The position numbers and the translations under genes were made by a program. From the IMG/VR virus record IMGVR_UViG_3300048854_000064, positions 1-44,174 of that record: a DNA stretch of 44,174 bases; one strand, given 5' to 3'. This document shows positions 1 to 44,174 of the stretch, one piece after another. Each line of letters starts with the position of its first letter. The first letter of the stretch is position 1. The DNA is from a virus (taxonomy: Duplodnaviria; Caudoviricetes). The notes beneath the pieces are model-generated. The model did no database searches, had not been told where the DNA came from, and worked only from the letters and a program-made list of their open reading frames with translations.

Positions 1-244
1 GAACAATGACCGACTTATCCACAGGCGCGGGGGCGCTGAACGTCTGTGGCTGGATTTGCTCGACGGCGCCGAATTCCCACTTGACCGCCTGATCGACGCG
101 AAACAAACCCTCGCGAAAGCGATCGGCTCCAGCACCAATGAGGACTGACACGATGGACAAGCTACTCGCTTCATTTCAGAACGCCACGCAAGCCGGATTG
201 CGAGACATCGCAACCGCGCTCGAGCAATTTTCGTCTGGCGTCGC
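1..244 (+). repeat. Terminal direct repeat, left copy
   Basis: Matches 43931-44174 except at pos 7 (t vs c) and pos 117 (a vs c). It covers the end of PRTRC B and the start of PRTRC A. Confidence 0.97.
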
Positions 245-944
245 CGACGAGCTGGCCCGCGCAAAGCCGCGAGCGATCGCAGCTACCGAGGATGACGAAT
301 CCCTACCGCTCGACATCGCGTTGTTCGACAGCGCTCCGACCGTCGCCGTGCCAAAGCACGCCAAGTTTGCGCCGTTGCTCGAAGTCGGCCATCGCTTTTT
401 GATGACCGCCGAAGGCGTCTTTGTCGAGGTGCGGCGTCCATGGCTGCACGTCATCCAGCGCTTATCTGCTCATGCCGGCGCAAGCCCGCGCCCGCCGTAT
501 GGCGACATTGAGCCGAAGATCGAACTGGCATTTGGCCGGCTTGGCGTCGCTCTCCCCTTTGTCCAGGCGTTCGCAGAGGAAGCGCGCAGCGCGTTGCCAA
601 ATGAGCACGCCGCGTGGATCGTATGGGACCACGACAAGCAAGAGCTTGCATACAAGGGGCTTCATGTATCACAAGCCACACCGGGCGCGATCACGTTCGA
701 GCGGCCAGTGCTCGCGCCGAATGAGTCGCTTGCGATCGACATTCACAGTCACGGTGCTGGAATGGCTTACTTCAGTCCGCAAGACGACACAGACGACGCC
801 GGCGAAGTAAAGATCTCCGCGGTGCTCGGCAGCCTTGATGCCGATGGCACGCCAAGCGTTGCATTCCGCCTTTGCGTGCTCGGCATGTTCATTCCGTTGA
901 AAGTGCCCGCAGCAGCAGTCTTTAAGGTTCCGGAGCCGGCATGA
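153..944 (+). CDS. PRTRC system protein A, JAB/MPN+ metalloprotease
   Basis: JAMM motif: PNE...IDIHSHGAGMAYFSPQDDTDD (E, HxH, S, D). ATG at 153 follows GAGGA. It lies between the E2-like gene and ThiF. Confidence 0.9.
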   Translation: MDKLLASFQNATQAGLRDIATALEQFSSGVADELARAKPRAIAATEDDESLPLDIALFDSAPTVAVPKHAKFAPLLEVGHRFLMTAEGVFVEVRRPWLHVIQRLSAHAGASPRPPYGDIEPKIELAFGRLGVALPFVQAFAEEARSALPNEHAAWIVWDHDKQELAYKGLHVSQATPGAITFERPVLAPNESLAIDIHSHGAGMAYFSPQDDTDDAGEVKISAVLGSLDADGTPSVAFRLCVLGMFIPLKVPAAAVFKVPEPA

Positions 945-1669
945 CGCACATAACGCCTGCGCATTTCCTCGATCGGCGCGTGAACATTGCGCTGATTGGG
1001 TGCGGCGGAAATGGCTCGCAGATGCTCACTGGCCTGGCGCGTCTCAACCACGCGCTTACGGCACTCGGTCATCCGGGTCTGCACGTGACCGCTTTCGACG
1101 GCGACACGGTCAGCGAGGCGAACATCGGTCGCCAGATGTTTAGCCCCGCAGACGTCGGCCAGTACAAGAGCGTCGTGCTCGTGCATAGGTTGAATGCCTT
1201 CTTCGGTCTCGACTGGCACGCCCGGCCGATTCCGGCCAGCACGCAAGAGGTGATTCACGCAGGGCCGGGCATCGCAATAATGTGCGTCGACAGCGCAGCT
1301 GCTCGAGCGAAGCTTGAGCCGGTCCTCGCGCGCGCAGCTGTGTATGTGATGGATCTGGGAAATCGGGCGAGCGATGGCCAGGTGATATTCGGGCATAACA
1401 AGTCGACCGCCGAGGCTGGCAGTACGCCACTGCGGTGGCCTTATGCGGTGCTGCCGGAATTGATCGATACAACGATTCCAGAAGACGACACGCCGAGTTG
1501 CGGGCTGGCCGAAGCGCTCGAGCGGCAAGAGCTTTTCATCAATCAGGCGATCGTGACGCCGGCGCTCGGGATCCTGTGGGAGTTTTTCCGACATGGCCGC
1601 CTCACCTGGTGCGGTGCCTTTGTGAATCTCAAGACCGGGCACGTTCGCCCGCTGCCTGTGGATAACTAA
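941..1669 (+). CDS. PRTRC system ThiF/E1-like activating enzyme
   Basis: IALIGCGGNGS nucleotide-binding loop, DGDTVSEANIGRQ, CVD, DLGN and a candidate catalytic Cys in TPSCGLAEAL. ATGA overlap with protein A. Confidence 0.93.
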   Translation: MTHITPAHFLDRRVNIALIGCGGNGSQMLTGLARLNHALTALGHPGLHVTAFDGDTVSEANIGRQMFSPADVGQYKSVVLVHRLNAFFGLDWHARPIPASTQEVIHAGPGIAIMCVDSAAARAKLEPVLARAAVYVMDLGNRASDGQVIFGHNKSTAEAGSTPLRWPYAVLPELIDTTIPEDDTPSCGLAEALERQELFINQAIVTPALGILWEFFRHGRLTWCGAFVNLKTGHVRPLPVDN

Positions 1670-2609: not shown

Positions 2610-3192
2610 GCGTGAACTCCCGATCTTATTTTCTGGCGCGATGGTACGTGCGTTGCTGGACGGCAGCAAGACGCAGACGAGACGTGTCGTCAAAGGCTTT
2701 GCGCTCGATTTGCTGCAGCCGGACAACTTCACCCCGGAATTCGTCGCACTCCCTGAGAATGGAAACAGTCCCTACGGGTTCGTGGGCGATCATCTGTATG
2801 TGCGCGAGACATGGGCACAGCCAGCCGCTCTTGATCCTGGCCCAACTGTCTACCGCTCCGACTACCCTGCGTGCGTGCCAGCCGGCTTTGAGAACATTCC
2901 GCCGGCGGACGAGGTCACATGGAAACCGTCCATCCACATGCCGCGCTCGCTTTCGCGGATCACCCTCGAAGTCACAGGCGTGCGCGTCGAGCGGCTGCAG
3001 GACATCGGTGAGGCCGACGCATGGGCCGAAGGCTGCCCGGAAGACGCCACTTGGGCGCTCGATTGGTACCGCTCGCTATGGGACAACCTCAACGCCGCAC
3101 GCGGGTATGGGTGGGACGTCAATCCGTGGGTTTGGGTCGTCGAATTCGCAAGAGCAACTTCGGATAACCCCATATCAAGGCTATCTGAATAA
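2608..3192 (+). CDS. Phage ASCH/PUA-like hypothetical protein
   Basis: MRELPILFSGAMVRALLDGSKTQTRR...LYVRETW...WKPSIHMPR...NPWVWVVEF is a widespread phage family pattern. Confidence 0.8.
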   Translation: MRELPILFSGAMVRALLDGSKTQTRRVVKGFALDLLQPDNFTPEFVALPENGNSPYGFVGDHLYVRETWAQPAALDPGPTVYRSDYPACVPAGFENIPPADEVTWKPSIHMPRSLSRITLEVTGVRVERLQDIGEADAWAEGCPEDATWALDWYRSLWDNLNAARGYGWDVNPWVWVVEFARATSDNPISRLSE

Positions 3193-3565
3193 TCCAACCA
3201 ATGAATCCAGCAAGGACGCTCTGACAGATGCTCCCTACCCAGCTTTTCAATGATGAGTTCGCGTCTAGTGTCACCGTATTTTGGTCAACAACGACTCCGG
3301 ACGAGTCCTCTAAATCAGCTAGGCCTATGCCGTTGACGGTATTCCTCTCGATTTTCCCGCCGTGCATTCTGGGAGCATATATGGCGTATGAAGGAGCGGC
3401 CCTTGTAGGGTCAATCGCCATTCGAATGAAGAGGAGAGAACCGATAATTATCAATAGAGGAACGACAAGAGTCTTTGCGATTTTGATCCATGTGTTTTCG
3501 GGCCGTGGCGCGAAATCTTGGTTTGCTACGCCCTTCTTATTCCGAGCCTCTTTTTTCGTAGACAC
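3119..3565 (-). CDS. Hypothetical two-TM membrane protein (counter-oriented moron)
   Basis: Two hydrophobic segments (TLVVPLLIIIGSLLFI and VLAGFIGWIIQIALIWG). GTG at 3565 follows GAGG. AT-rich. Confidence 0.6.
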   Translation of the reverse strand: MSTKKEARNKKGVANQDFAPRPENTWIKIAKTLVVPLLIIIGSLLFIRMAIDPTRAAPSYAIYAPRMHGGKIERNTVNGIGLADLEDSSGVVVDQNTVTLDANSSLKSWVGSICQSVLAGFIGWIIQIALIWGYPKLLLRIRRPKPTD

Positions 3566-3663
3566 ATTCGCCTCTGATCGAAAATATCGAGGAATCCTAG
3601 CATGACGCTGCACATAGACGCGCTATTGCGCATCACTCGTAAAGACTGGCTCGGGGAACAAGC

Positions 3664-3870
3664 ATGAAAACCGGAGTGATGACCGTTCAAGACTTAATTG
3701 ACCTGACCGGCGGCCTGAAGCAAGGAGCCGCGCAGATCCGATGGATCGAGCAAAACATAGGAATCAAGTGCCCGCGCAAGATCGACGGGCACCCGCTCCT
3801 GACGTGGGAGCAGTATCACAAGCCCGCAGAGGCTAGCCGCAAGGCCAACATAAATTGGGAAGTCGCATGA
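3664..3870 (+). CDS. xis: Probable excisionase (DUF4224-like small DNA-binding protein)
   Basis: 68 aa with DLIDLTGG..Q..QIRW pattern. Its stop overlaps the integrase ATG (ATGA). Confidence 0.7.
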   Translation: MKTGVMTVQDLIDLTGGLKQGAAQIRWIEQNIGIKCPRKIDGHPLLTWEQYHKPAEASRKANINWEVA

Positions 3871-4886
3871 AACGCAGGGACGGCTTGTTGCCCCGCATGG
3901 AGGCAATCAAGCGAAAAAAAGGAATCAGCTACCGCTACCACCCGGTGGGCGCCAAGCCGATCAGCCTAGGGATGGACAAGACTGCCGCCGTTCGGAAGGT
4001 TCTCGATCTGCTCGGCGCCAGCGGCGATCTTGGAACCATCGGCAAGCTGTGGGAGCAATTTCAAGAGACGGCACAGTGGAAGCGCTACGCGCCGGACACC
4101 CGCACTGACTACACGCAGTGCAGCCTCATGATCCTGAAGATTTTCAACAAGGCGCGCGCATCCGACATCGAGGCGCCAGACATCGCGCGCTATCTCCGCA
4201 AGGAACGTGCAGACGCGCCCGTCCGAGCCAACCGCGAGGTCGCGCTGCTTTCAAACTTGATTGGCTTGGCGATCGAGCGCGGAGAGGCGAAACATAACCC
4301 GTGCCGCGAAGTGCGCCGGAATGAAGAACAACCTCGCACGGAGGCACCGGACCCGAAGGAGTTCGCGGCGTTCTCCGTTTGGCTGTCCGCCAAGGGCGGC
4401 CAGAAAGCAGTCATGGGCATGGCTGCAGAATACGCCGCGCTCGCTGGTAATCGGAAGGTGGAATTTCTGGACCTGGCGTGGCCGCAGGTCGATCGCGCGG
4501 CCGGCGAGATTCGCACGAAAAGAGCGAAGCAGCGGGGGAAGAAACGGGGCGAAGTTATCGAAATTATCGAAATCACTCCGCGCTTAAGCGAACTGCTGGA
4601 TCGCCTGGAAAAGCTGCGCACTGCGCGCGACTGTCTCTATGTGTTCCGCAATCGATTCGGGAACGCCTATACGAGCAGCGGCTTCAAAGGCAATTGGGGA
4701 AAGCTGATGAACGATGCGCTGAAGGAGAAGGTTATCAGCCGCCGTTTTACGTTCCACGACCTGCGCGCGCACTACGTCACGCAGCACAAATCGGAGCGCG
4801 GAACCCTGCCAGATCTGCACGCGAATCCCGCGACGACCGCCCGCATTTACGATCGTAACAAGACGGTCAACCGCAAAGGGCTGTAA
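3867..4886 (+). CDS. int: Tyrosine recombinase (phage integrase)
   Basis: Catalytic residues visible in GNRKVE (R), FHDLRA (HxxR) and LHANPATTARIY (H, Y). Adjacent to attP. Confidence 0.93.
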   Translation: MKRRDGLLPRMEAIKRKKGISYRYHPVGAKPISLGMDKTAAVRKVLDLLGASGDLGTIGKLWEQFQETAQWKRYAPDTRTDYTQCSLMILKIFNKARASDIEAPDIARYLRKERADAPVRANREVALLSNLIGLAIERGEAKHNPCREVRRNEEQPRTEAPDPKEFAAFSVWLSAKGGQKAVMGMAAEYAALAGNRKVEFLDLAWPQVDRAAGEIRTKRAKQRGKKRGEVIEIIEITPRLSELLDRLEKLRTARDCLYVFRNRFGNAYTSSGFKGNWGKLMNDALKEKVISRRFTFHDLRAHYVTQHKSERGTLPDLHANPATTARIYDRNKTVNRKGL

Positions 4887-4951: not shown

Positions 4952-4982
4952 CGATAAACCATTGAAACACATACCAATTCGT

Positions 4983-5032
4983 TGGGGTGGCTGATGGGGC
5001 TCGAACCCACGACAACAGGAATCACAATCCTG
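4983..5032 (-). other. attP core = 3' half of tRNA-His(GUG)
   Basis: Reverse complement is CAGGATTGTGATTCCTGTTGTCGTGGGTTCGAGCCCCATCAGCCACCCCA: anticodon arm with GTG, T-arm GGTTCGA, and CCA end. The 5' half is absent. Confidence 0.92.
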
Positions 5033-5045: not shown

Positions 5046-5210
5046 ATCAATCAAGGGTTCCCGACCGTTTTGTGGAACTGAATCCCTGAACTGGCCTTTG
5101 ATTTCATTGGTTTTTTCCGACTCTGTTCCACAAAGGCTACGCCTTCTAAAGGTTTTGCTTATAATGGCCGATAAAGTGTTTTTGTTTTGTCAAGTCAATC
5201 AGGGGGATGT

Positions 5211-5762
5211 ATGTTGGCAGTGACGATGGAGACAGCCGCTGAAGGCGTTGAAGCGTCCCTCGCTAGCCTGGTAAGTAAGCATCGCGGCGGCGCGAGCGCA
5301 TTGTATCGGGTGGAACTGTTTTGGCTAACCAGGGTACGGCTTCCTTGGCTTCAGCGGTTGATGACGCGAGGCGCAAAGTCGGCGAATCGCGCCACCGCAC
5401 GATTGATCATGTCACTTCTAAATATTGGTAATGTGGCGGACTTCTATTCCACTAAGCCGGTGGATCTTGATCTCAGACTGCGAGACGTACTCGAAAGGGT
5501 GAAGGAGGATGCGATTGAGTCCCGCGATAAATCCTTGGAACGAATTTCCGCTCTTCAGCAACGTAGCAGCGAGTTGAAAGTGTACGAGGCTGAGCTCAGG
5601 CGGGGCGTTTCGCTTGCCGTCGAGATGTTCAACGTGGCAAACCAAATTCAGTGGAAACTTGCCGAACATGATTCGGACGTTGCCGCCCGGCTCGACGGGT
5701 TTGTTGCGTCAAGCTACGAAGAAACAAACGCAATCTTGGACCGAATCTTAGCCGGAGGCTGA
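5211..5762 (+). CDS. Hypothetical alpha-helical protein, candidate antitoxin
   Basis: ATG at 5211 follows AGGGGG, with TATAAT at 5160-5165. It lies directly upstream of a RelE-like gene and has an acidic C-terminus. Confidence 0.65.
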   Translation: MLAVTMETAAEGVEASLASLVSKHRGGASALYRVELFWLTRVRLPWLQRLMTRGAKSANRATARLIMSLLNIGNVADFYSTKPVDLDLRLRDVLERVKEDAIESRDKSLERISALQQRSSELKVYEAELRRGVSLAVEMFNVANQIQWKLAEHDSDVAARLDGFVASSYEETNAILDRILAGG

Positions 5763-5766
5763 TTGC

Positions 5767-6102
5767 GTGGAAGGTTTCATAATAAAAAAAGTCGACTACG
5801 GCTCACCAATTTTTCAGAAAACGTTCGCAAAGTTAGACGTCCAAGTCATCAAAGAAGCCCGTAAGGTTTTCGGAGAGCTTCCGCTCCTAGACGTTTCTTG
5901 TGCTCCTGCAAAGCTGCATTTGCACACCTTGAAGGGGTTGACTGTCCGTTCCGCTGTGGATCCGACGCGAACTGTTGCCGTCTACACAATCCACATCACC
6001 ACCAATGATAAATACAAGGCCAGCTTCACTTTTGAAGACGGCACGGCATACATGCGCGTCTGCGGAACACACGACTGGGTTGACAAGAATCCTGGCGGGT
6101 AA
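5767..6102 (+). CDS. RelE/ParE-superfamily toxin-like protein
   Basis: 111 aa with FQKTFAKL...LHLHTLKG...YTIHIT..YKASF...MRVCGTHD, a RelE/HigB-like size and pattern. Confidence 0.7.
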   Translation: MEGFIIKKVDYGSPIFQKTFAKLDVQVIKEARKVFGELPLLDVSCAPAKLHLHTLKGLTVRSAVDPTRTVAVYTIHITTNDKYKASFTFEDGTAYMRVCGTHDWVDKNPGG

Positions 6103-6130: not shown

Positions 6131-6146
6131 CTGTATATCCATACAG
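6131..6146. promoter_or_regulatory. LexA (SOS) box
   Basis: CTGTATATCCATACAG is a perfect CTGT-N8-ACAG, 14 nt upstream of ATG 6161. Confidence 0.85.
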
Positions 6147-6427: not shown

Positions 6428-6973
6428 CTAGGCGAAGCGTCTCGCCTTCATAACAGAGATGATCTGATCGCCAGTCATCTTGCCCATATGAAGGTTGGCG
6501 CGAATCGGTAAGAACACATCGAGCATCCGAAGATGTGCAGGAACCGACTCACTGTGCGAGTTAATATCGCGACCCGCGAAAGACTGAAATCGCTTCAGGT
6601 CATCAATCATGAAAGTCGCGACACCGTAATGCTCTTCGTTGTTCGCGTCGAATCCGGCAAAGGTAATTTCATCGCCGTACACCTCACCTTCGGCCAGAAC
6701 GCGCTTCTTCTCGCCATCGTCGAGACGTGCAAACGCGCTCTCCAGAAATGCCCACATATCAAGAATATCAGCAGTCTCCTTCACAGCCGGCGGGTTTGGT
6801 TGTGTGTGATCGTGATCTTGCAAAAAGTTGTACTGCCATTCAAATGCCCAGAGTTGGTCATTATGCAGAGCCGATTGGACAAATTTGTGATCGATTTCGT
6901 GATCTATTTCAAGCTTCTCATACACCTCGCAAAGCATCTGCAAGATTAACTTCTCAGCGGGGGACACTTTCAT
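6428..6973 (-). CDS. yfbU: YfbU family protein
   Basis: EKLIL.MLCE...ILDMW...FAGFDANNE...RF....INSH...ML pattern. Start at ATG 6973. Confidence 0.85.
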   Translation of the reverse strand: MKVSPAEKLILQMLCEVYEKLEIDHEIDHKFVQSALHNDQLWAFEWQYNFLQDHDHTQPNPPAVKETADILDMWAFLESAFARLDDGEKKRVLAEGEVYGDEITFAGFDANNEEHYGVATFMIDDLKRFQSFAGRDINSHSESVPAHLRMLDVFLPIRANLHMGKMTGDQIISVMKARRFA

Positions 6974-7074
6974 TTTTATCAACCTCGGTTTGAGCGGAGA
7001 GAAAGTGTAGCGCCGCTGACACCGAGAATCCAATTGCCACTTGATAAATAATCAACAAGCTTGCGACCACTGCT

Positions 7075-30037: not shown

Positions 30038-30066
30038 ATGATATGGCGGTGTTTTCCGCCAGTCAA
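30038..30066 (-). promoter_or_regulatory. pR'-like late promoter
   Basis: TTGACT-17 bp-TATCAT directly after the Q-like gene. The spacer holds GGCGG-N6-CCGCC. Confidence 0.75.
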
Positions 30067-30647
30067 GCGTTTTGTGAGAACAGCATGCCGGCGACGTCGA
30101 GTTGCCCGTACCATTCCGTCCATGCGGTTTTCTCAGTGTCCTTCAGGTAGGCATTGATAATCGACGCGTGCCGCTCGGCTGTGCGTGGCGGGATATTCAG
30201 ATCTGCCGCGACGTCTTTCATTTTCAGCTTCTCGCCGAAGTACTTCTCGATCGCAGCCAACCGAAAACGACGGAGCGTGAAAACCCCACCGAGAGCCGGT
30301 ATCACTAGATCACTTAGCTGACTCACTGCATCGCGATACAGCGGATTCGGTTTCCAGCCACCACAACAGCTATGGTTGCATTCGCAGCGCTCTTTTCGCG
30401 GCGCGCAACGCGCAACGAGCACGAGCATCTGCACGTAGTCAATATTGCCGAGCTCGGCCAGCACCATGCCCGATTGCGCTGCACCATCAAGCCCGATTAA
30501 GCCTCGGCCGCTGCCGCTCGATCCACGCTGCAAAAGCTTTGCCATTGGCGACATGGCGTATTGTTGGGCCGCATAGTTGCACGCAAACACCACAGCCTCG
30601 TGTGCGCTTCTGAAAATCCCTTCATGCTTGACCGATTCCATGTTCAT
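30063..30647 (-). CDS. Probable late antiterminator (Q-like)
   Basis: Last gene of the early-right arm, with a Cys cluster and C-terminal HTH. Followed by a promoter and terminator. Confidence 0.65.
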   Translation of the reverse strand: MNMESVKHEGIFRSAHEAVVFACNYAAQQYAMSPMAKLLQRGSSGSGRGLIGLDGAAQSGMVLAELGNIDYVQMLVLVARCAPRKERCECNHSCCGGWKPNPLYRDAVSQLSDLVIPALGGVFTLRRFRLAAIEKYFGEKLKMKDVAADLNIPPRTAERHASIINAYLKDTEKTAWTEWYGQLDVAGMLFSQNA

Positions 30648-35707: not shown

Positions 35708-35869
35708 TTACTTCGCTGTTGCTGCTGGCTTCGCTGTCGCCGCTTTCAACGCAAGAAACTGATCGATCAAATCCTTCTTGGCTCGATCCATCTGCGCGCC
35801 GATGCAACCTCGCGCAGCCATTTCGCACAGCACCGCGCGAATCTCTTTAATTTCTGTTGACGTGAGCAC
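35708..35869 (-). CDS. Small hypothetical protein after cro (53 aa, not in the ORF track)
   Basis: GTG overlaps the cro TAG. Sequence MLTSTEIKEIRAVLCEMAARGCIGAQMDRAKKDLIDQFLALKAATAKPAATAK. Confidence 0.55.
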   Translation of the reverse strand: MLTSTEIKEIRAVLCEMAARGCIGAQMDRAKKDLIDQFLALKAATAKPAATAK

Positions 35870-36063
35870 TACGCCGCCTCGGCCGTGCTGAGCAATTCAG
35901 CGTGAAGGGCAACGAGGCTGTCTTTGGTGGTGGCGCGCACGTCCTTGCGGCGGCCCGTCTCGATGTGGCTGATCGCGCCTTGCGTCATTCCAACGCGCTG
36001 CGCGACCTGCTCTTGAGAAAGCCCAAGCTTCCGAATCGAAACGACGAGCTGTTGCGCGTCCAT
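35869..36063 (-). CDS. cro: Cro-like repressor
   Basis: 64-aa XRE HTH (LSQEQVAQRVGMTQGAISHIETG), divergent from cI. Confidence 0.9.
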   Translation of the reverse strand: MDAQQLVVSIRKLGLSQEQVAQRVGMTQGAISHIETGRRKDVRATTKDSLVALHAELLSTAEAA

Positions 36064-36095: not shown

Positions 36096-36124
36096 AGAAT
36101 AATACTTATGTATTTGGATGTCAA
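36096..36124 (-). promoter_or_regulatory. pR promoter
   Basis: TTGACA-17 bp-TATTCT upstream of cro. Confidence 0.8.
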
Positions 36125-36170
36125 TACCAATGTAGTTGGACCATCGGGCACAATCCAATACATGAGTAAT
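36101..36170. promoter_or_regulatory. OR operators, three copies of AATAC-N4-GTATT
   Basis: AATACTTATGTATT at 36101, AATACCAATGTAGT at 36123 and AATACATGAGTAAT at 36157. Confidence 0.8.
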
Positions 36171-37061
36171 ATTGGAAAACGCCTCATCGAGGCCCGTTCA
36201 AAGCTCGGCTGGTCGCAAGAAGACCTGGCCGCGAAATCTGGCGTCAGTCAGGGGACGATAGGTCACCTCGAAAGCGGCCGAAACAAGAGCTCGACCCTGC
36301 TCCCAAAAATTGCGGGCGCCTTGGGCGTAACTGTCGAATGGCTTACCGGAGGCGGCAAAGAAACGGGTAAAGTTGCCTCTGTTCTCGGCATGGGTGATGC
36401 CGGGTTGGCTGATAGGATTAAGTCACTGATCGATGAGGCTGACGGCAATATCTCGAAAGTGGCCGCTGCGGCGAAGACCACGGACGAAATTGTCGCGGGC
36501 TGGCTCTCAGGCAAGACTAATCAAATAGGCGTGGATCAAGCCGTGGCGTTGCAGGAAGCATTCGGCATCAACTCTGTATGGTTGATGCTGGGCAAGGGGT
36601 CTAGAAAGACAGCTATCCGCCACAACGATGCGTTCGATCCAATACCTATAACAAACTGGAAACCGATCCCCGTGGTAGGAATGGCACAGCTGGGAGACAA
36701 CGGGCACTGGTCGGATTTGGAATACCCCGTAGGGCAAGGAGACGGTTTCGTCGACTTCCCTACTCGCGATCCAGACGCGTATGCCTTGAAATGCGAGGGA
36801 GACTCGATGCGACCTCGCATCCAGGCGGGCGAGTTTGTCGTAATCGAACCGAATCAGCCGATCGAACCGGGCGATGACGTCCTGCTGAAATCGCTCGACG
36901 GACGCGTAATGATCAAGCGCTTTCTTTATAAGCGGGCCGGAAGAACACACCTGATTTCAGTCAATGATGCGCATCCAGCGATGTCATTTACCGACGATCA
37001 GATTGAGAAAATGCATTTTGTTCGCGCGATTTGCAGGCCGTCGGCGTGGCGCCCAGATTGA
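36162..37061 (+). CDS. cI: CI-like repressor with two XRE-HTH domains and an S24 peptidase
   Basis: HTH1 WSQEDLAAKSGVSQGTIGHLESGR, HTH2 NISKVAAAAKTTDEIVAGWLSGK, and GDSM plus MIKR catalytic Ser/Lys. The start is probably leaderless. Confidence 0.93.
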   Translation: MSNIGKRLIEARSKLGWSQEDLAAKSGVSQGTIGHLESGRNKSSTLLPKIAGALGVTVEWLTGGGKETGKVASVLGMGDAGLADRIKSLIDEADGNISKVAAAAKTTDEIVAGWLSGKTNQIGVDQAVALQEAFGINSVWLMLGKGSRKTAIRHNDAFDPIPITNWKPIPVVGMAQLGDNGHWSDLEYPVGQGDGFVDFPTRDPDAYALKCEGDSMRPRIQAGEFVVIEPNQPIEPGDDVLLKSLDGRVMIKRFLYKRAGRTHLISVNDAHPAMSFTDDQIEKMHFVRAICRPSAWRPD

Positions 37062-37078
37062 GACGATGCGAGCAAGCG

Positions 37079-37660
37079 ATGATAAGAAAAAGAGCTGTCT
37101 GTGCCGCGTTGCTGATCGCGCTCTTCGGTTGCGACAACAAGCCCACTGTGCAAATAGCCGCGAAGCCGGCACTCACGCCCGTACAGCGCTCGGCCGCCGT
37201 TCTATCGGCTACACAGGGGATGGTGCAGGAGCGCGACAAAATGGAGTCGATCTCATTTTTTAGCGCGAAGGGCGAGCCGTGGATAGGCGATGGAATCACA
37301 GTCTACGTAGCGGTTCCTGATGATACTCATGCCTTCCTGCGCATCGCTCCGCACTATCAGGGTAGTGAGTGGATTTTCTTCAAACGCATCAAGGTCATGG
37401 CAGACTCAAAGATTGTGTACGAGAAAGACTTCAGCGCTCTTAGGGTGAAGCACGACAACAACTCTTCAGGCGTGTATGAAAGTGTCGACTATGCTGCCGA
37501 AGGGATCGACGTAGACGCCATGCGTGCGATAGCGGCTGCAAAATCAGTCACGGTCAGGCTCTCAGGCGACGATAAGCGCGACGAGTTTGATTTGACCGAG
37601 AAAGACCGCGCACGAATTGCCCGCTCCTTAAGCGCGTTTGATGCGCTCTCGGCTATCTAG
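37079..37660 (+). CDS. Lipoprotein (candidate superinfection exclusion)
   Basis: MIRKRAVCAALLIALFGC lipobox, immediately downstream of cI. Confidence 0.75.
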   Translation: MIRKRAVCAALLIALFGCDNKPTVQIAAKPALTPVQRSAAVLSATQGMVQERDKMESISFFSAKGEPWIGDGITVYVAVPDDTHAFLRIAPHYQGSEWIFFKRIKVMADSKIVYEKDFSALRVKHDNNSSGVYESVDYAAEGIDVDAMRAIAAAKSVTVRLSGDDKRDEFDLTEKDRARIARSLSAFDALSAI

Positions 37661-37787
37661 TCAGCTTTAAAGCAGGGTTTGATAACCGGACCGGACCGAA
37701 TGGGGAATGCACGCTGGTTACGAGCGATACCCGCGTACGCGTCAAAATTATTTAGGGTTCGATACCTGGATTTTGTGACCTGCTAGA

Positions 37788-37991
37788 ATGAATTCCATGA
37801 AAAAGCAATCCGAAACCTTCGTTGAAGCGCTTCTTGCGGGCGAAAGCTCCGCTGAGCGCGTGCGCGACGCGTTCCGCGAGCTTGGACAATCCATCGTGCA
37901 GTCGCAAAAATCCCTCGAAGAAAAACGAACAAAAATTGAAAGGGAAATGAAGGATGGCGCGCGAGTCACAAAGCATCGATTCCATCTATGA
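37788..37991 (+). CDS. Small coiled-coil hypothetical protein
   Basis: 64-67 aa, overlapping the next gene by 38 nt. TGnTAGAAT at 37781 suggests the start may be ATG 37797. Confidence 0.6.
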   Translation: MNSMKKQSETFVEALLAGESSAERVRDAFRELGQSIVQSQKSLEEKRTKIEREMKDGARVTKHRFHL

Positions 37992-38823
37992 CTTTTTATA
38001 CGCAGACACAGAACGCTTAAGGTCCTGGCTTGCGCAAGTCGTAGACGATGGCGTGCCCATAGGGCACAAACATACCTCCCAGACTGGCGAGACGGCAACT
38101 AGCGAGGTAGGTGGCGGGGTCGACGCCTCGGCGAAAGCTAACGCGCTAATAGCCAAAGCCGATATAAAGGGCGGGGTCAGTGGCAAGATTGGCTCTCAGC
38201 AGAGCGCCAATTTATCGTACGAGCGCAGCTTTGACTCTTCTTGGTCGTTGCCTCTGAATGTTCTCGATCGGCTGGATGAACTTGATTTCATCGAGCGCGA
38301 CCTAAGTGCCGCAAAAATTGGCTCGCTAGTACTCGTTACGGGTACTCCTCAGCTGCTCGATATTAAGCTCCTTCAGGATGTCTGGACGCCTGGCACGTCT
38401 TACATGGCAGCCGACGCAAAGGTTACGCACCAGAACAAAACCCAATTGACCTCAGCCAAGGCCATGATGAAAGGCATCGGCGAAATCCTTAAGGTAATGC
38501 CGCCCGCGCCGCAACTCACGATGGTCGACCATGCCGGCAATAATGTGTGGGCTTGTTTACAGGACCAACATCTGATCGTTAGTGCCGCGTCCCTTGCGCT
38601 GACTCACGGAAGTACGATTCGAGGTGTTTGGCACGTGCTCGCGGTCCTAGATGCAACCCCGGACGCAGAAGATGATGATGATACCGGGGAGGTCGTCAAC
38701 AGCCAGCTAATGTCAGCGGCTTCAACGCTGCTCGGCGCCATTCGAGAGCTGATGGGTCGGTCCCCAGCGGCATACGGAGTCACTCCCGTACTAATATTTC
38801 GTGCAGTTTCGTCACGCGACTGA
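37954..38823 (+). CDS. Hypothetical protein (289 aa, DUF6414-like)
   Basis: IYDFLY.D..R..S.LAQ N-terminus, Gly/Ser beta-hairpin segment, and C-terminal YGVTP.LIFR. Confidence 0.75.
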   Translation: MARESQSIDSIYDFLYADTERLRSWLAQVVDDGVPIGHKHTSQTGETATSEVGGGVDASAKANALIAKADIKGGVSGKIGSQQSANLSYERSFDSSWSLPLNVLDRLDELDFIERDLSAAKIGSLVLVTGTPQLLDIKLLQDVWTPGTSYMAADAKVTHQNKTQLTSAKAMMKGIGEILKVMPPAPQLTMVDHAGNNVWACLQDQHLIVSAASLALTHGSTIRGVWHVLAVLDATPDAEDDDDTGEVVNSQLMSAASTLLGAIRELMGRSPAAYGVTPVLIFRAVSSRD

Positions 38824-38957
38824 CCGGATGAAACTGGCGAAGCGACAGCTCCGGGAGCCTGCCCCAAGCAGGGCTTTTTATTGTCAGAGCGACATAGCGA
38901 AAGCTTGGCGTGCATAATATTGACGTCGCGTCTCAGCGCGACGCAGTGTCCAACATT

Positions 38958-38982
38958 AGCCCGCCTCGTGCGGGCTTTTTTT
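38958..38982 (+). terminator. Rho-independent terminator
   Basis: AGCCCGC-ctcgt-GCGGGCT followed by a T tract. Confidence 0.85.
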
Positions 38983-39080
38983 GTCCCATGTGACGTGTGA
39001 GGTGAATTCGAACGTTGCGCCCGTAATCTTCTGATGTTAACTTGAAAGCTCAATTACAAAACCTTTCGGGGACCATCAGA

Positions 39081-39869
39081 ATGAAAAAAGCATTTCTCCC
39101 GCTGTTCGCGGCTCTTTCGCTGGCTGCGTGCGGCGGAGGTGGAGACGGTGGCTCTCCAGCATCAACATCGAAAGTCGCCAACATCTCGTTCTACGGGAAT
39201 CCCCTGCCGAGCGTGACCGGCGGTGCGGCTGTCGCAAAGGTTGCGATCGTGCATGCCGCGTCGGATCCCGCTGCATCGGATGGCGCAGCGACGACGGTTA
39301 AGACCCTCACAGATGCGCTGGCGGACCAGGGCGTAACTGCGACCGTCACGCCTCAGGTGCTGAACGGTACAGGCCTGCATGCGCTGATCCTGGGCGAAAA
39401 CAACGGCCTCCCCCCGACAAACGACCAGTTCAAGACTGATCCGAACGGGTTCCTGGTCATCAACTTCCAGATTGACGACATGGTGACGCCGATGGATGAC
39501 TCGAGTCAGCAGGCTGCCCTCGCCACGTTCCAACAGGACATCTACACCTTCATCCAGCGGGCGCACGTTAGCGGGAAGCTCGTGTACGCGATCGTGCCAA
39601 TCCCCACCTGCGACGCGCCGGCGGGTCACAGCGCGGCAGATGGGGTGGCTGCGGCCATTGCAACGGCCGCAGGCCAAGCCGCAGGATTCCCGGTGGGGAT
39701 ACTTCCCTCGAATCTCGTTGCCGGCACGGATGGCGTGTACACAAATACGTTCACGGCCGGCCACCTGGGCGCTGATTGCCGAACGCCCGACGCGTACCTC
39801 TTGAACGCCTGGACGCAGTCAATCGCCGAGCGCATGGCGCCAGGCCTCAAGAACGGCCCGGCTGGCTAA
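39081..39869 (+). CDS. Lipoprotein, possibly with a degenerate SGNH/GDSL-like fold
   Basis: MKKAFLPLFAALSLAACGGGG lipobox, ISFYGN, VINFQIDD and ADCRTP. The canonical GDS and DxxH residues are not conserved. Confidence 0.75.
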   Translation: MKKAFLPLFAALSLAACGGGGDGGSPASTSKVANISFYGNPLPSVTGGAAVAKVAIVHAASDPAASDGAATTVKTLTDALADQGVTATVTPQVLNGTGLHALILGENNGLPPTNDQFKTDPNGFLVINFQIDDMVTPMDDSSQQAALATFQQDIYTFIQRAHVSGKLVYAIVPIPTCDAPAGHSAADGVAAAIATAAGQAAGFPVGILPSNLVAGTDGVYTNTFTAGHLGADCRTPDAYLLNAWTQSIAERMAPGLKNGPAG

Positions 39870-39894
39870 CGAAAAGACGCGCACTTTTCAACCG

Positions 39895-39921
39895 TCCCGC
39901 CACACCGGCGGGATTTTTTTT
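39895..39921 (+). terminator. Rho-independent terminator insulating pL
   Basis: TCCCGCC-acacc-GGCGGGA followed by T8. Confidence 0.85.
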
Positions 39922-39930
39922 ACTACCTCA

Positions 39931-39971
39931 AATACTTTTGTATTTACATCCGGCAAATACTTTCGTATTAT
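39931..39971 (+). promoter_or_regulatory. pL promoter with two OL operators
   Basis: TTTACA(39943)-17 bp-TATTAT(39966), overlapped by AATACTTTTGTATT (39931) and AATACTTTCGTATT (39956), the same palindrome as OR. Confidence 0.85.
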
Positions 39972-40020
39972 TCATCTCAGGCACTCACCGAACACGGCGA
40001 GATTCGAATCAAGGGGATGA

Positions 40021-40170
40021 ATGATGAACCGCGCACCATGCGACAACGCCCTGCTCCATGCATGCGACCGCGTACACGCAAAGCTTCCGCTGTACGTTGC
40101 CCTGCTGGGCGCCGGCGTCGGCTGCTTCTGGTACTTGCTGGTTTGCTTCAAAGCGGGGTTGATCGGATGA
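40021..40170 (+). CDS. Small single-TM protein (49 aa)
   Basis: MMNRAPCDNALLHACDRVHAKLPLYVALLGAGVGCFWYLLVCFKAGLIG with AGGGG RBS. Confidence 0.65.
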   Translation: MMNRAPCDNALLHACDRVHAKLPLYVALLGAGVGCFWYLLVCFKAGLIG

Positions 40171-40289
40171 AACTCTGGCAAATCTGGGGCGTAACGCTCA
40201 TCGTCGCTGCCTTGTATCTCCTGGTCGGTGCCGAAATGGACTACCGCGCTGCACGCGCCGAACGTTGCGCTGTGATGCATTGCATCTGA
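40167..40289 (+). CDS. Small single-TM protein (40 aa)
   Basis: MKLWQIWGVTLIVAALYLLVGAEMDYRAARAERCAVMHCI. ATGA overlap with the previous ORF. Confidence 0.65.
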   Translation: MKLWQIWGVTLIVAALYLLVGAEMDYRAARAERCAVMHCI

Positions 40290-40317
40290 ACTGATCAACC
40301 TCCCGTAAAGGCTCACC

Positions 40318-40473
40318 ATGCATGCAAACCTGATAGCAGTCCTTATGGCCTTACTGTTTCTGTTTTGCTTCGCGGCGTGCTGGTTAGTTCGCGGTGGTGC
40401 GATCAACGAGCGCGAAGAGTTGAAGCGGATCAAAGAGGCGCATCGAAATATCAAGTGGCCCGTTTCGCACTGA
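40318..40473 (+). CDS. Small single-TM protein (51 aa)
   Basis: MHANLIAVLMALLFLFCFAACWLVRGGAINEREELKRIKEAHRNIKWPVSH with AAGG RBS. Confidence 0.6.
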   Translation: MHANLIAVLMALLFLFCFAACWLVRGGAINEREELKRIKEAHRNIKWPVSH

Positions 40474-40486
40474 AGGAAACACCTGT

Positions 40487-40866
40487 GTACGGGACGCCGC
40501 GGCGGATCTAGGCGTGACACTCGGCAGAGACCGGGATGCTTAAGGGTGGCGAATGCGCAGGCTGATGCGCTATTCCAGTGCGCCGAGGCCAGTCCGTAGA
40601 ACGGGCCGCCTCAGACCCATGCCGGAGATCAGTGCCGGCCGCCACCCTTAAGCAGTAGCTAGTCAGAGCGCGTACGGAACGCCGCGGGTATGTAGAACCA
40701 GGCGTGACAGGTCGGAGAGACGGCCAATGAACAGCGGGAAGCGATGAGCAGCGGGAAACCACTAATACCCAGCATGAGTCGCGAATCTACTACCTGCGCA
40801 GGCTTTGGCGGAGGAGCGGCAAGCAACAGTGCGAAATGCGGTGGTGACAGCTGGGAATAGACCGGC
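40487..40866 (+). repeat. Three copies of a GTGACA + 5-bp hairpin module
   Basis: GTGACA-CTCGG-cagaga-CCGGG at 40514, GTGACA-GGTCG-gagaga-CGGCC at 40704 and GTGACA-GCTGG-gaataga-CCGGC at 40844. The first two are also preceded by GTACGGRACGCCGCGG. Confidence 0.7.
40537..40654 (+). ncRNA. Putative structured RNA: cloverleaf with complementary loops
   Basis: A perfect 15-bp closing stem encloses three hairpins, and loop GCTGA can pair with loop TCAGT. Confidence 0.7.
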
Positions 40867-41085
40867 ACTGAATTGATGGGTGGCGCATTCCTCCCTTAAC
40901 CGTTGGCCTAGTAATTAGGGAACCTGAATCTGTCGAGTCTTGCAAGGCGGTAGCCCCGGGCACGGGACAGACAGTCGAAAAGCAGAGAAATACGGATCGA
41001 ACAGTGGGATGCCGACCGGCCGCCGTAAGCGGCTCCAAATACTCCGGCGCTGCAACTGCATCGCGCGCTAACTAAGGATCTTGAT

Positions 41086-41376
41086 GTGTCGCGTTATCAC
41101 TGTCGATGCCGCAAGTGCGAAAAGCGAAAGGTGCTACGGCTGAAGCCCGAAGAATACACCCGGCCGCCGCGCTGCAGTGACTGTGGTTCTTCAAGTTTTC
41201 GCATTGATGCATGGATGACCAAGCGCAACACGCGCGCCATGGGTTGCACGTGCGCGGGCTACCACTTCATGCATCGTCGCGGAAGCTTGTTTTGTTGGTA
41301 TCGCGCCGATGGGTCTGATCGATACCCCGGCGATCCCGATTTCGCCGATCGAAATTATGACGGCCTTGCGGCCTGA
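41086..41376 (+). CDS. Cys/His-rich putative zinc-binding protein
   Basis: CRCRKC, CSDC and CTC..YH..HR.GS..C. GTG start after TAAGGA. Confidence 0.75.
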   Translation: MSRYHCRCRKCEKRKVLRLKPEEYTRPPRCSDCGSSSFRIDAWMTKRNTRAMGCTCAGYHFMHRRGSLFCWYRADGSDRYPGDPDFADRNYDGLAA

Positions 41377-41403
41377 TTCAACGCAGCACAACACGAGGTG
41401 ACC

Positions 41404-41931
41404 ATGTCCCTGTTCGCATCACTTTATCCGCTGGCGCAAAAGACAACGCTCACGCTTTTGATCACTGCTGAAGGCGATCAATTGCGCGTGAATGTAACTC
41501 CGCGCGCCAACGACGACGCCAAAGGCGAAAAAACGCTCTACCCGCTTTCAATCCTCGCCAAGCCAGACGAGTTGGACCGCGACTTCGCGGCGGCGGTTGA
41601 GATTTACGAGCCAAGCACGTTGTCTGTGCTCGACCAGGCGCGCGCCGCCAGTGCCGCAAATGGAAATGCGTCGACGCCGCCGGCGCTTCCCGCTCCTTCG
41701 TCGAAGGGCAAGGGCGGCCGCAAGCGCGCCACCGAAACGCCGGTGCCGACCGATACGAGCGACAGCGCTGGCGATGCCGACGCGCTGCCGGTCGATCCGC
41801 GTCAAACGCAAATTCCCGGCATCGATCCTGACGCCGAGCACATCACACCCGAAACGCCCGCGGAGCCCGCTGAGCAGGATTCCAGCAACGCGCAGCCCGC
41901 CGCCGAAGACGACGGCGTCGACCTTCTCTAA
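41404..41931 (+). CDS. PRTRC system protein E
   Basis: MSLF..L.PL.....L.L.I..EG..LRV.V.P...PL.....P.ELD..F, followed by a low-complexity acidic tail ending DLL. First gene of the cassette. Confidence 0.82.
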   Translation: MSLFASLYPLAQKTTLTLLITAEGDQLRVNVTPRANDDAKGEKTLYPLSILAKPDELDRDFAAAVEIYEPSTLSVLDQARAASAANGNASTPPALPAPSSKGKGGRKRATETPVPTDTSDSAGDADALPVDPRQTQIPGIDPDAEHITPETPAEPAEQDSSNAQPAAEDDGVDLL

Positions 41932-41942
41932 GGACCCACACC

Positions 41943-42155
41943 GTGAAAACCGAAACACTCGCTCGCGAGTTTCGCTACAACGGCGCGAAGCTCACCGATC
42001 CGTCGCCGGGTTTCTCCCTTCAGCAGGTTCGCGATTTCTACGGCAACACGTATCCGGAAATCGTCAACGCCGAAATTGAAGGTCCCGATGTCGTCGGCAA
42101 CAAGAACGTCTACACGTTCCGCCGGGCCGTTGGAACGAAAGGAATCGCGCTGTGA
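41943..42155 (+). CDS. PRTRC system protein C, prokaryotic ubiquitin-like protein
   Basis: 70 aa: L.REF.YNG..L.DP.P......VRDFY...YPE..NA.IEGP.......Y.F.RAVGTKG followed by IAL. Confidence 0.92.
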   Translation: MKTETLAREFRYNGAKLTDPSPGFSLQQVRDFYGNTYPEIVNAEIEGPDVVGNKNVYTFRRAVGTKGIAL

Positions 42156-42334
42156 CACTTGACCAGATTCGCGTCGAGCTCGAGCGCGGCCCGCTCTCAC
42201 CTTCGACGACCCATCGCGTCGATATGCACCTGGTGAACGATCGCGTTGCGACGAAGCTCCATGCAGTGGCGACGAAGCGTGCCGCCGGCGTGCGTCTGCA
42301 GTTACCTGCTTCTCATATGCCGGTGTTGCCATGA
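42152..42334 (+). CDS. Small hypothetical protein inside the PRTRC cassette
   Basis: 60 aa. GTGA overlap with C and ATGA overlap with F. Confidence 0.6.
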   Translation: MTLDQIRVELERGPLSPSTTHRVDMHLVNDRVATKLHAVATKRAAGVRLQLPASHMPVLP

Positions 42335-43368
42335 CCTTCTCTGCTCTCGCGCTGCCGTCGCTCGCTGATGTGCCCGCCGCCTACACGATTCGGTCTAACG
42401 AGTCGTTCGTCCACCCGCTTGCGCTCTCCTTGCTCGACTCGGGCGTGATCACTGAGGCGGACGTGGTCAAGCGGCCGAAGTCCGATCTCGCGCTTGCTCA
42501 GGCAGCGATAGTTCGCCGATGGGAGCGAGTCACCGCGGGCATGAGTCTGTTCGATTGGCATCTGCGGCTCGAACAGGCTCCGGAGCATGGCTACCCGCAA
42601 CACCGGGACGATCATCTGTGGGCGCTAATCCAGACGGCACACGGGCCAGTGTCGTGCTCGGAGGTTTGCATCGGCGGCGCCATGAAAAAACTTGAAAGTG
42701 TGCGCGTCGGCCTCGGGCAGACGGTACTTGCCACGCTTTACGATGCCTTCCGGATGCTGCCCACTGTCTGCACGCCAAGGTATGTTTTAGGCGTCGCGGA
42801 ATACCTTTACTGGTATGGCGAAGCGGACGAGGATGAAGCAATAAAGCAAGCGCTCGACATGACCGGATACGACACCATGGAGGAACTGCTTGCTTCCGAA
42901 GATTTTTTTACGCGTGACGAGTTTTTCAGCGAGATGCCGGAATGGGCAGCGCTACCGCGTCGCACGCTCACGCGTCGCCAGATTCAGCTAGCTGCCGGCC
43001 GGGATTCATTCGCCCGCGAGATCGTAGATGCGATGGATGCGGTTTGGAACATTGTGCGTTTTTACGGGCCTTTCGCTGACGTGCGCAGCGAAGACGTGGG
43101 CGCAGACATGATCGACTTCGGTCTGATCGTCCGATGGAGCGCAGACGACATTGTCGGGCGCGTTCTGGATGATTTCCTGCACCACGCCAGCGAAGGCGAC
43201 AACATCATCGCGTCGTCAGTCACTCCTCTAAAGATCGTCGGCAACGATATTGCGGAATGGCTTAAGAACATGGAATCAACGGGAATGCTCGCGAAGTCTG
43301 TAGAGCGCGTCCTGTCACTGCTAAGTGAATTTCAAGAGCCGCGAACACTTGTGCGGGTGCTCGTATGA
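42331..43368 (+). CDS. PRTRC system protein F (alpha-helical)
   Basis: ALALP.L..VP N-terminus, LE....GLGQTVL..L, YWYGE.DE, MP.WA..P and R..DD. Position between C and B. Confidence 0.82.
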   Translation: MTFSALALPSLADVPAAYTIRSNESFVHPLALSLLDSGVITEADVVKRPKSDLALAQAAIVRRWERVTAGMSLFDWHLRLEQAPEHGYPQHRDDHLWALIQTAHGPVSCSEVCIGGAMKKLESVRVGLGQTVLATLYDAFRMLPTVCTPRYVLGVAEYLYWYGEADEDEAIKQALDMTGYDTMEELLASEDFFTRDEFFSEMPEWAALPRRTLTRRQIQLAAGRDSFAREIVDAMDAVWNIVRFYGPFADVRSEDVGADMIDFGLIVRWSADDIVGRVLDDFLHHASEGDNIIASSVTPLKIVGNDIAEWLKNMESTGMLAKSVERVLSLLSEFQEPRTLVRVLV

Positions 43369-44078
43369 CTACAGTCACGATCGCCCAAGAGAACGATGTG
43401 GAACTCGAGCTGGACAGCGCGCTGCTGTTCTACCGTGCGCAGCGCACACATCACATTTACGCGACCCAGCATAGCGCTCGCGTGGTCGACGGCAAGCCTA
43501 CCCTGCTCGCCGGCGTGCCGATAACGCTCGACCAGTTGGCCGACATCGCCGACCTTGCGGCTCGGAAAACGAGTTGCCGCGGGTTTATCCACAATCGCGT
43601 GGTGTATCTCGCGCCGAACCAGCTCGCCTGGTGGGTGCCCGCATGCACGCGGCGCGTGTGGTTCAACACAAAGGACAAGATCGGCGAACGTGCCGGCGAC
43701 GCCACGCACCCGCCGCTAGTGTTCATCGTCAATCGCACCAGCTGGTCCGTGTTCGCTTTACGCGATAACGCGCGACCTGGCGCGGCAACGAAGCTCTACA
43801 CGGCTCCGTATTACAACGTTTGGGAAGGCGGCGAGATCTGCGTGGGCAACGTGCAAACGCCTGATGCAATCAATACGGACAGCATCAAGCCGTATGAAGA
43901 CGCGTTCTTTCGCAGCCGCTTCACTCACACGAACAACGACCGACTTATCCACAGGCGCGGGGGCGCTGAACGTCTGTGGCTGGATTTGCTCGACGGCGCC
44001 GAATTCCCACTTGACCGCCTGATCGACGCGAAACAAACCCTCGCGACAGCGATCGGCTCCAGCACCAATGAGGACTGA
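43365..44078 (+). CDS. PRTRC system protein B, E2-like conjugating enzyme
   Basis: WW.PA..R.V.F, P.LVF, RP...T.LY.APY.NV...G.ICVGN (candidate catalytic Cys) and FF.S.FTH.N. Confidence 0.9.
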   Translation: MTTVTIAQENDVELELDSALLFYRAQRTHHIYATQHSARVVDGKPTLLAGVPITLDQLADIADLAARKTSCRGFIHNRVVYLAPNQLAWWVPACTRRVWFNTKDKIGERAGDATHPPLVFIVNRTSWSVFALRDNARPGAATKLYTAPYYNVWEGGEICVGNVQTPDAINTDSIKPYEDAFFRSRFTHTNNDRLIHRRGGAERLWLDLLDGAEFPLDRLIDAKQTLATAIGSSTNED

Positions 44079-44174
44079 CACGATGGACAAGCTACTCGCT
44101 TCATTTCAGAACGCCACGCAAGCCGGATTGCGAGACATCGCAACCGCGCTCGAGCAATTTTCGTCTGGCGTCGC
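43931..44174 (+). repeat. Terminal direct repeat, right copy
   Basis: Duplicate of 1-244 with two substitutions. Includes the start of protein A at 44083. Confidence 0.97.

Follow-up and report, generated by a model that had tools for sequence, protein, structure and literature searches.

The PRTRC cassette, which corresponds to operon 6d and is represented by the NCBIfam families TIGR03734-03742, has been catalogued since 2006 (PMC1779556) and is called variously partitioning or pilus-related in the passages available. Its phage-borne form is already known, since the genes of Ralstonia phage Dina are annotated as PRTRC and the cassette of Burkholderia gladioli phage AB2 has been published, its function being called unstudied in the passages available (PMC13366799, 2026). 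We found no functional study of the PRTRC or 6d cassette in a literature survey judged mainly from titles and the openings of abstracts, supplements aside. The bacterial systems Bil (6C) and Bub have a similar composition, namely E1, E2, JAB and a ubiquitin-like protein (hereafter abbreviated as Ubl) with a removable tail, which is trimmed by their peptidases according to the available parts of the reports (10.1101/2023.09.26.559546, PMC11601596). Here we have analysed the virus record IMGVR_UViG_3300048854_000064 over its full length of 44,174 nucleotides (the window), the genome of a circular temperate soil siphovirus with lambdoid layout, in which a PRTRC cassette lies behind a predicted lytic promoter of the phage. 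In this it differs from Bil and Bub, which belong to other families, are host-side and often lie near CapH/CapP or WYL regulators in the literature available.

The cassette lies on the plus strand with the order E, C, a 60-residue ORF, F, B, A and ThiF, all six named genes scoring above their NCBIfam cut-offs. PRTRC protein E (41404..41931; TIGR03741, 63.9 bits against a cut-off of 37.95) is followed by protein C (41943..42155; TIGR03738 and PF14454), a Ubl that ends with GTKG plus three residues, by ORF X of 60 residues (42152..42334), by the helical protein F (42331..43368; TIGR03742, 133.2 bits against a cut-off of 58.4; PF14456), a predicted partner of B, and by protein B itself (43365..44078; PF14460, Prok-E2_D) with Cys159 and His188. 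The last bases of the window, 43931-44174, are a copy of bases 1-244 with 2 mismatches, and this terminal repeat indicates that the contig is circular, so that the arm starting at 39943 carries on at base 1 and includes A and ThiF at 138-1669. (The 2 mismatches are odd for a pure assembly overlap; strain variation may explain them.) Protein A (138..944; DUF2016 plus Prok-JAB) is a JAB peptidase with an intact HxH-S-D motif, and ThiF (941..1669; TIGR03736, 304.6 bits against a cut-off of 144.75) is E1-like, with its nucleotide motif and crossover cysteine.

These motifs are conserved in de-duplicated relatives: GTKG in 30/30, the JAB motif in 21/21, the nucleotide and crossover-cysteine motifs of ThiF in 19/19 and the cysteine motif of B in 27/28. 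Cys159 and His188 are invariant in the 29 rows of the B alignment; protein F has the invariant acidic residues E122 and D280 and no invariant cysteine. What follows GTKG in the Ubl of the relatives ranges from nothing at all through a short tail to either of two fused domains, a variability that fits a pro-form trimmed by A. One of these domains is related to the 60-residue ORF, a gene of its own here that is found as a fused tail behind GTKG in other phages (loci L014, L137, L140 and L145), and the other tail type is that of most Burkholderia copies.

By its sequence features, this set of genes is operon 6d of Iyer 2006, in the form of a PRTRC cassette without ParB. It combines, as does the operon described in the available passages of PMC1779556, a Ubl with a C-terminal glycine, a JAB protein with an extra N-terminal domain, an E1-like protein, an E2-like protein in which Cys is followed by His, and a helical protein whose charged residues are conserved. 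The six TIGRFAMs and the E-C-F-B-A-ThiF order are shared with plasmids, of which 109 records match ThiF and the three inspected have the order ParB-E-C-F-B-A-ThiF. The window differs from plasmid PRTRC in having a Cys/His-rich, zinc-finger-like gene (41086..41376, plus strand; phrog_17384) in the place of ParB, and in being wired to a phage repressor. No match to the ParB profile TIGR03734 was found in the window, the same search giving a below-cut-off signal in 8 control genomes, and we have consequently filed the cassette as the ParB-less phage form; PRTRC protein D also gave no match in the window, nor did it in the controls. The same genes in the same order are found in Dina (NC_055026), BgVeeders33 (OK665841) and AB2 (PMC13366799), in an arm opposite to CII or replication genes. 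The available passages of the AB2 paper list a ParB and interpret these genes as a partitioning element, and repressor control is absent from them.

The sequence TTTACA-17-TATTAT at 39943..39971 of the plus strand, with 10 of the 12 consensus bases, is the predicted early-left promoter of the phage, hereafter called pL. It is preceded by a hairpin with a T run resembling an intrinsic terminator (39894..39924, plus strand), which closes the upstream genes and insulates pL. Two perfect copies of the palindrome AATAC-N4-GTATT overlap the promoter, left operator 1 (39931..39944) touching the -35 element and left operator 2 (39956..39969) covering the spacer and most of the -10 element. The palindrome recurs between cro and cI (36101..36136), with perfect arms at 36101-36114 and one mismatch at 36123-36136, on a divergent promoter-like site (36124-36096) that is the predicted pR. 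The initial annotation had described pL as overlapped by two perfect copies of the cI-cro palindrome, and this is confirmed. The left-site pattern gives 6 matches with up to 3 mismatches in comparison with 0.49 expected, two of the six being the source sites themselves. The phage thus has the same operator at its left and right promoters, as in the left operon of lambda type, and also the divergent cI (HTH plus S24) and cro genes of the lambda-type switch.

We then analysed the co-variation of the left and right palindromes in 35 loci with the cassette, the window itself and 34 viral loci for which the zinc-finger gene served as anchor. After dropping five loci in which the HTH of the repressor or cro was not located (L031, L033, L043, L047 and L058) and three near-duplicates (L030, L035 and L082), 27 loci of 16 repressor types were retained, their cI-cro windows being set by hand from the HTH positions, and the best palindrome found in the interval from cI to the anchor was scored against the cI-cro site of the same locus over 12 outer positions. 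Within a phage, left and right sites agree at all 12 positions for 8 of the 16 types, and for 14 types the agreement is at least 11, while pairs crossed between repressor types (n=240) reach these levels in 1.25% (3/240) and 22.5%, respectively. The operators are wholly unlike across types; L040, which has a nearly identical first HTH, shares almost the operator of the window. Hence the palindrome at the left promoter changes together with the cI-cro palindrome across repressor types, which supports control by CI. In 23 of the 27 loci, the shared palindrome overlaps a pair of -35/-10-like elements that is followed by a short leader. These results, drawn from sequence comparison, indicate that CI very probably represses the promoter of the cassette, and they support the placement of the latter in a CI-controlled early-left operon. 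The leader of the window (39972-40000) is kept across several repressor types and in relatives without the cassette, and is a candidate regulatory element; its presence in cassette-free relatives makes pL the general early-left promoter of this phage group.

The operon begins with three small hydrophobic ORFs without a named family (40021-40170, 40167-40289 and 40318-40473, plus strand), and the way from pL to gene E further comprises the zinc-finger-like gene and about 600 non-coding bases. No strong terminator lies en route from pL to ThiF in the window, and a counter-oriented ORF (3119-3613, a possible membrane protein of uncertain reality) is found beyond ThiF, in line with the earlier claim that neither an obvious terminator nor a counter-oriented gene separates them. 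The same annotation held that the arm continues to xis-int. The genes for excisionase and tyrosine integrase are indeed present at its end (3664..4886, plus strand), although a 10/12 promoter-like site at 2572, past ThiF, together with ORF 3119-3613, makes a single transcript up to them less certain than claimed. From pL up to gene E, the window has no promoter-like site that reaches 9/12; one scoring 9/12 lies within ThiF.

The position of the cassette is conserved among relatives. Gene E lies within 700 bases downstream of the zinc-finger-like gene in 40 of the 60 viral loci anchored on the latter, and all six genes are present in 37. Among 31 loci of bacterial genomes found by ThiF, 26 have the full set, 23 of these together with a phage marker; 18 of the 26 are preceded either by cI in the same orientation or by CII/O in the opposite one, the records being of Caballeronia, Paraburkholderia, Trinickia, Ralstonia, Janthinobacterium, Massilia and Telluria. 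Of 50,697 GenBank phage records, 4 match, corresponding to Dina, YO105_4 and BgVeeders33. ThiF of the window is 64-74% identical to the copies of the Dina, BgVeeders33 and AB2 group and 97% identical to the closest named ThiF, that of a Caballeronia genome, which suggests the host group. In phages without the cassette (20 anchor loci, of whose 77 protein cluster representatives 75 were scanned), the genes behind the same anchor include DNA methyltransferases, ParB-like, Mom-like and Mu Gam-like proteins, queuine tRNA-ribosyltransferase, Avd plus reverse transcriptase, helicase, polymerase and many unknowns. The cassette is therefore one among many modules of a variable early arm. DNA methyltransferases, Mom-like and Gam-like genes are counter-defence functions. 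In one cassette-free locus (L067:11268-12966), the place that the cassette takes elsewhere in the early-left arm is held by Avd and reverse transcriptase, the genes of a diversity-generating retroelement.

It had also been proposed that the cassette occupies the slot of recombination genes, which raises the question of whether the two modules alternate among related phages. The window lacks the recombinase and exonuclease module of the lambda-type left operon: a six-frame search gave no match to RecT, ERF, Rad52/22, AAA_24 or YqaJ, and no recombinase, Gam or N name was found among its ORFs scanned by Pfam (83) and PHROGs (57). These scans bear out the earlier statement that no recombinase or exonuclease homologue is recognizable. 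The profile search for Mu Gam gave no signal in any control genome either, and carries no weight on the absence of Gam; N proteins are short and divergent and may escape scans of this kind. We extended the six-frame search to 50 of 91 distinct records, picked for length and variety, which together with the window make 26 records with the cassette and 25 without. RecT was found in 2 records, YqaJ in the same two, AAA_24 in 2 and ERF and Rad52/22 in none, all hits being in cassette-free records; none of the 26 cassette phages has RecT, Erf, Sak, Sak4 or YqaJ, with the reservation that remote annealases could slip through a fast first look with five profiles. These 51 records do not support the alternation, because 21 of the 25 cassette-free relatives equally have none of the five families and only 2 of the 25 have RecT plus YqaJ in this arm. 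Moreover, no annealase name occurs among the cluster representatives of the 20 cassette-free anchor loci. Relative to cI, the RecT-YqaJ pairs are on the same strand and 4-6 kb downstream, which shows that the arm is able to hold such a module; the AAA_24 matches are on the opposite strand, some 4 kb upstream from the anchor. The absence of a recombinase is, on this sequence survey, a trait of the phage group unrelated to the cassette, and this negative outcome removes the idea of a recombinase substitute. Lambdoid phages without Rec proteins form a class already described (71 of 325 in the available passages of PMC12315714, 2025). The LLS class described there, a lambdoid left operon without a Rec module, shares with the window cI/cro, the xis-int end and the lack of a recombinase; the available passages name no ubiquitin-like genes. 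The window also has no outstanding strand-skewed Chi-like octamer: that of E. coli is found in 0 and 2 copies, and among the top over-represented words no octamer exceeds 8 copies.

Structure models provide information on how B and F may work together. The model of F is confident (pLDDT 86.7) and has no Foldseek match in PDB; a further comparison gave one weak, uncharacterised viral row (E 1e-3), and a wide structural search gave a best Z of 4.0, where an absent match does not prove a new fold, and an atlas search gave scores of 0.80 at most. We also considered F as a hidden recombinase, which was rejected since no clear structural match to this confident model supports it. The predicted complex of B (model pLDDT 84.5) with F scores 0.68, the best of three controls scoring 0.00, with contact agreement of at least 53% and partner pLDDT of at least 79 in the runs. 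This mark is passed by 116 of 157 solved pairs and 2 of 215 mismatched ones, figures roughly valid here given our own alignments, and by 7 of 44 neighbours picked blind, according to the tool's own account. Neither protein has a clear solved relative, so that a memorised complex is unlikely to lie behind the score. The predicted interface involves residues 53-82 of F and, in B, residues 2-16 and 38-47 on the N-terminal arm, distant in sequence from Cys159, a situation that fits an adaptor role for F. The modelling thus suggests that F binds the E2-like B and is a possible target adaptor, pointing to the subunit likeliest to select the target.

We consider that the cassette is best explained as a CI-controlled early Ubl system tagging a protein, likely of the host, a reading to which we assign a probability of roughly one half. 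CI would keep the cassette off in the lysogen, and it would be turned on straight after infection or induction. Protein A would cut C after GTKG and ThiF would adenylate the new end, then passing it via its crossover cysteine to Cys159 of B; such a chain of processing and transfer is probable by analogy with the chemistry of Bil and Bub. F would dock on the N-terminal arm of B as an E3-like adaptor choosing the target, and the small Ubl would be attached to a putative host protein hindering establishment. That this target is a defence or housekeeping protein of the host has about even odds in our opinion, on the grounds of the timing, the counter-defence nature of the neighbouring modules and the presence of the cassette on plasmids. 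Anti-defence genes are enriched in the leading regions of plasmids in the available parts of PMC11541004. We would only tentatively go so far as to propose that a broad clade of Burkholderiales lambdoid phages has its own repressor-controlled Ubl ligase, with F as an E3-like subunit of new fold on the E2, which would tag proteins of the host within the first minutes after infection. If true, this would be an offensive counterpart to the defences Bil and Bub, and a shared entry tool that would explain the presence of PRTRC on plasmids and integrative and conjugative elements. The probable placement under CI would also make induction a time window, and the lysogen a simple system, for catching conjugates.

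Several results weigh against our reading. In four of the 27 loci (L032, L057, L059 and L079) the best shared palindrome lies off any promoter. The scan that finds no terminator and no promoter-like site of at least 9/12 between pL and gene E in 23/23 loci recovers pL itself at this threshold for 13 of them only, and since pL falls under 9/12 in the other 10, weak or non-sigma-70 internal promoters may escape it. A Foldseek search with the model of B gave nothing at E 0.001, and a ubiquitin E2 came up only at E 0.57, so that the E2 assignment of B rests on the profile match. Finally, the cassette of AB2 has been taken for a partitioning element or a moron in the available passages (PMC13366799). 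This last interpretation, in which the cassette would be expressed in the lysogen for defence or partitioning from an unrecognised internal promoter, gains from the existence of related bacterial Ubl operons that are antiphage systems in the literature available, and from the approximately 600 non-coding bases before the cassette that could conceal a promoter, about 530 of which are nevertheless lacking in the two closest relatives. We regard it as improbable, given that the cassette has the same strand and place in all cassette loci examined with no promoter-like site or upstream terminator of its own in the 23 scanned, that ParB was not found here and that its G+C (0.60) is near that of the genome (0.58). 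PADLOC profiles for E1, E2, DUB and Ubl proteins of the Bil, Bub and CBASS type likewise gave, for 17 proteins, a match to ThiF only, weak and over a short stretch (best E 2.8e-7). The initial annotation had viewed the cassette as an early lytic function, silent in the lysogen, which argued against constitutive defence; its CI-controlled early-left position stands by virtue of operator co-variation and conserved location, and does argue against such a role, silence in the lysogen being what this position would imply.

An early, CI-controlled cassette might instead be directed at the phage's own proteins or at rival elements, tagging phage proteins or shielding them from ubiquitin-like host defences, Bil among them, by acting as a decoy or by JAB de-conjugation. 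This possibility shares the operator co-variation and promoter evidence with the host-directed reading; it is strengthened by the tagging of a phage tail fibre protein by Bil, as stated in the literature available, and by a gut prophage that diversifies its protein B gene together with a receptor-binding protein (10.64898/2026.10.01.756045), an arms race of which the available passages leave the side unnamed. We consider it unlikely, though credible, because plasmids that build no virion carry the same gene order, which favours a need common to all incoming elements. The Ubl could also be a carrier in the modification of DNA, RNA or a small molecule, considering that DNA-modification genes occupy the same stretch in relatives and that F, with its invariant E122 and D280, has been suggested to be an enzyme (PMC1779556, in the passages available). 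The model of F matches no solved enzyme clearly, which is neutral in this respect. However, protein conjugation is typically marked by a JAB peptidase and by an E2-like protein whose cysteine is invariant, as found here, which renders a non-protein target rather improbable. The functional replacement of a Red-type recombination module appears very improbable. The families searched are present in 0 of 26 cassette records and in 4 of 25 others (Fisher p 0.051, for non-independent records), and in two relatives this arm contains RecT together with YqaJ; against this stand the equal lack of such genes in most cassette-free relatives, the reported lack of Rec proteins in 71 of 325 lambdoid phages, the location of the two AAA_24 matches on the other strand and the pairing of F with B in the model.

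The non-coding stretch upstream of the cassette contains a covarying RNA element (40537..40654, plus strand; fold z -5.6 versus shuffles), which in relatives is not part of the cassette. Its predicted four-way fold consists of a closing stem and two near-invariant hairpins with complementary loops, the hairpins being separated by a variable insert. The pattern of the two-hairpin core finds 120 viral stretches in 26 of the 64 parts of the collection searched, about 310 in all. In the closing stem, which lies outside the pattern, 735 of 856 cells pair over 107 distinct copies in comparison with 461±14 for shuffled partners, with four pair types per column, the kinship of the copies being ignored. 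The neighbours at 34 named loci are Q or lysis genes (17), terminase (3) and cI (2), the element mostly following Q or preceding lysis genes; in HK620 its place is between pR' and the late terminator, in phiEt88 it immediately precedes a tRNA, and D3 carries it too. Searched against Rfam, the window has no hit that reaches the gathering score, the rows at 39850-41500 being of chance level, and 20 other copies of the element have none over it; a literature search by core words and keywords returned nothing relevant, and no antisense target stood out over 51 loci. A function as antiterminator of the operon was rejected, as the element is full in only 4 of 158 sequences and absent from other cassette loci, which also implies that the cassette does not require it. 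Our best guess is a tRNA-like small RNA of phage leaders. A short hairpin-like module occurs three times around the element (40487-40534, 40672-40724 and 40844-40865); the two closest relatives have a single copy and lack about 530 bases, as if recombined between copies.

In the rest of the genome, the minus strand holds the head, tail and lysis genes, and the O-like, CII-like and cro genes run leftward. The CI repressor (36162..37061, plus strand) combines an S24 peptidase domain with two HTH domains, the Cro-like HTH protein is encoded at 35869..36063 on the minus strand, and the gene at 30063-30647 is Q-like in the atlas search. The region 37031-39869, between cI and pL, contains genes with their own terminators (two lipoprotein-like ORFs and DUF6414), and these genes, rather than the cassette, are likely the accessories expressed in the lysogen. 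Beside int, 4980-5030 on the minus strand resembles the 3' part of a tRNA gene, for which ARAGORN calls no full gene, and is likely attP. Between the attachment site and the lysis genes there are two candidate morons, a two-gene unit without a named family (5187-6102, plus strand) and a YfbU-family gene (6428-7033, minus strand). The same variable region has at 6131-6146 a strong palindrome resembling a LexA box, to which no clear gene belongs.

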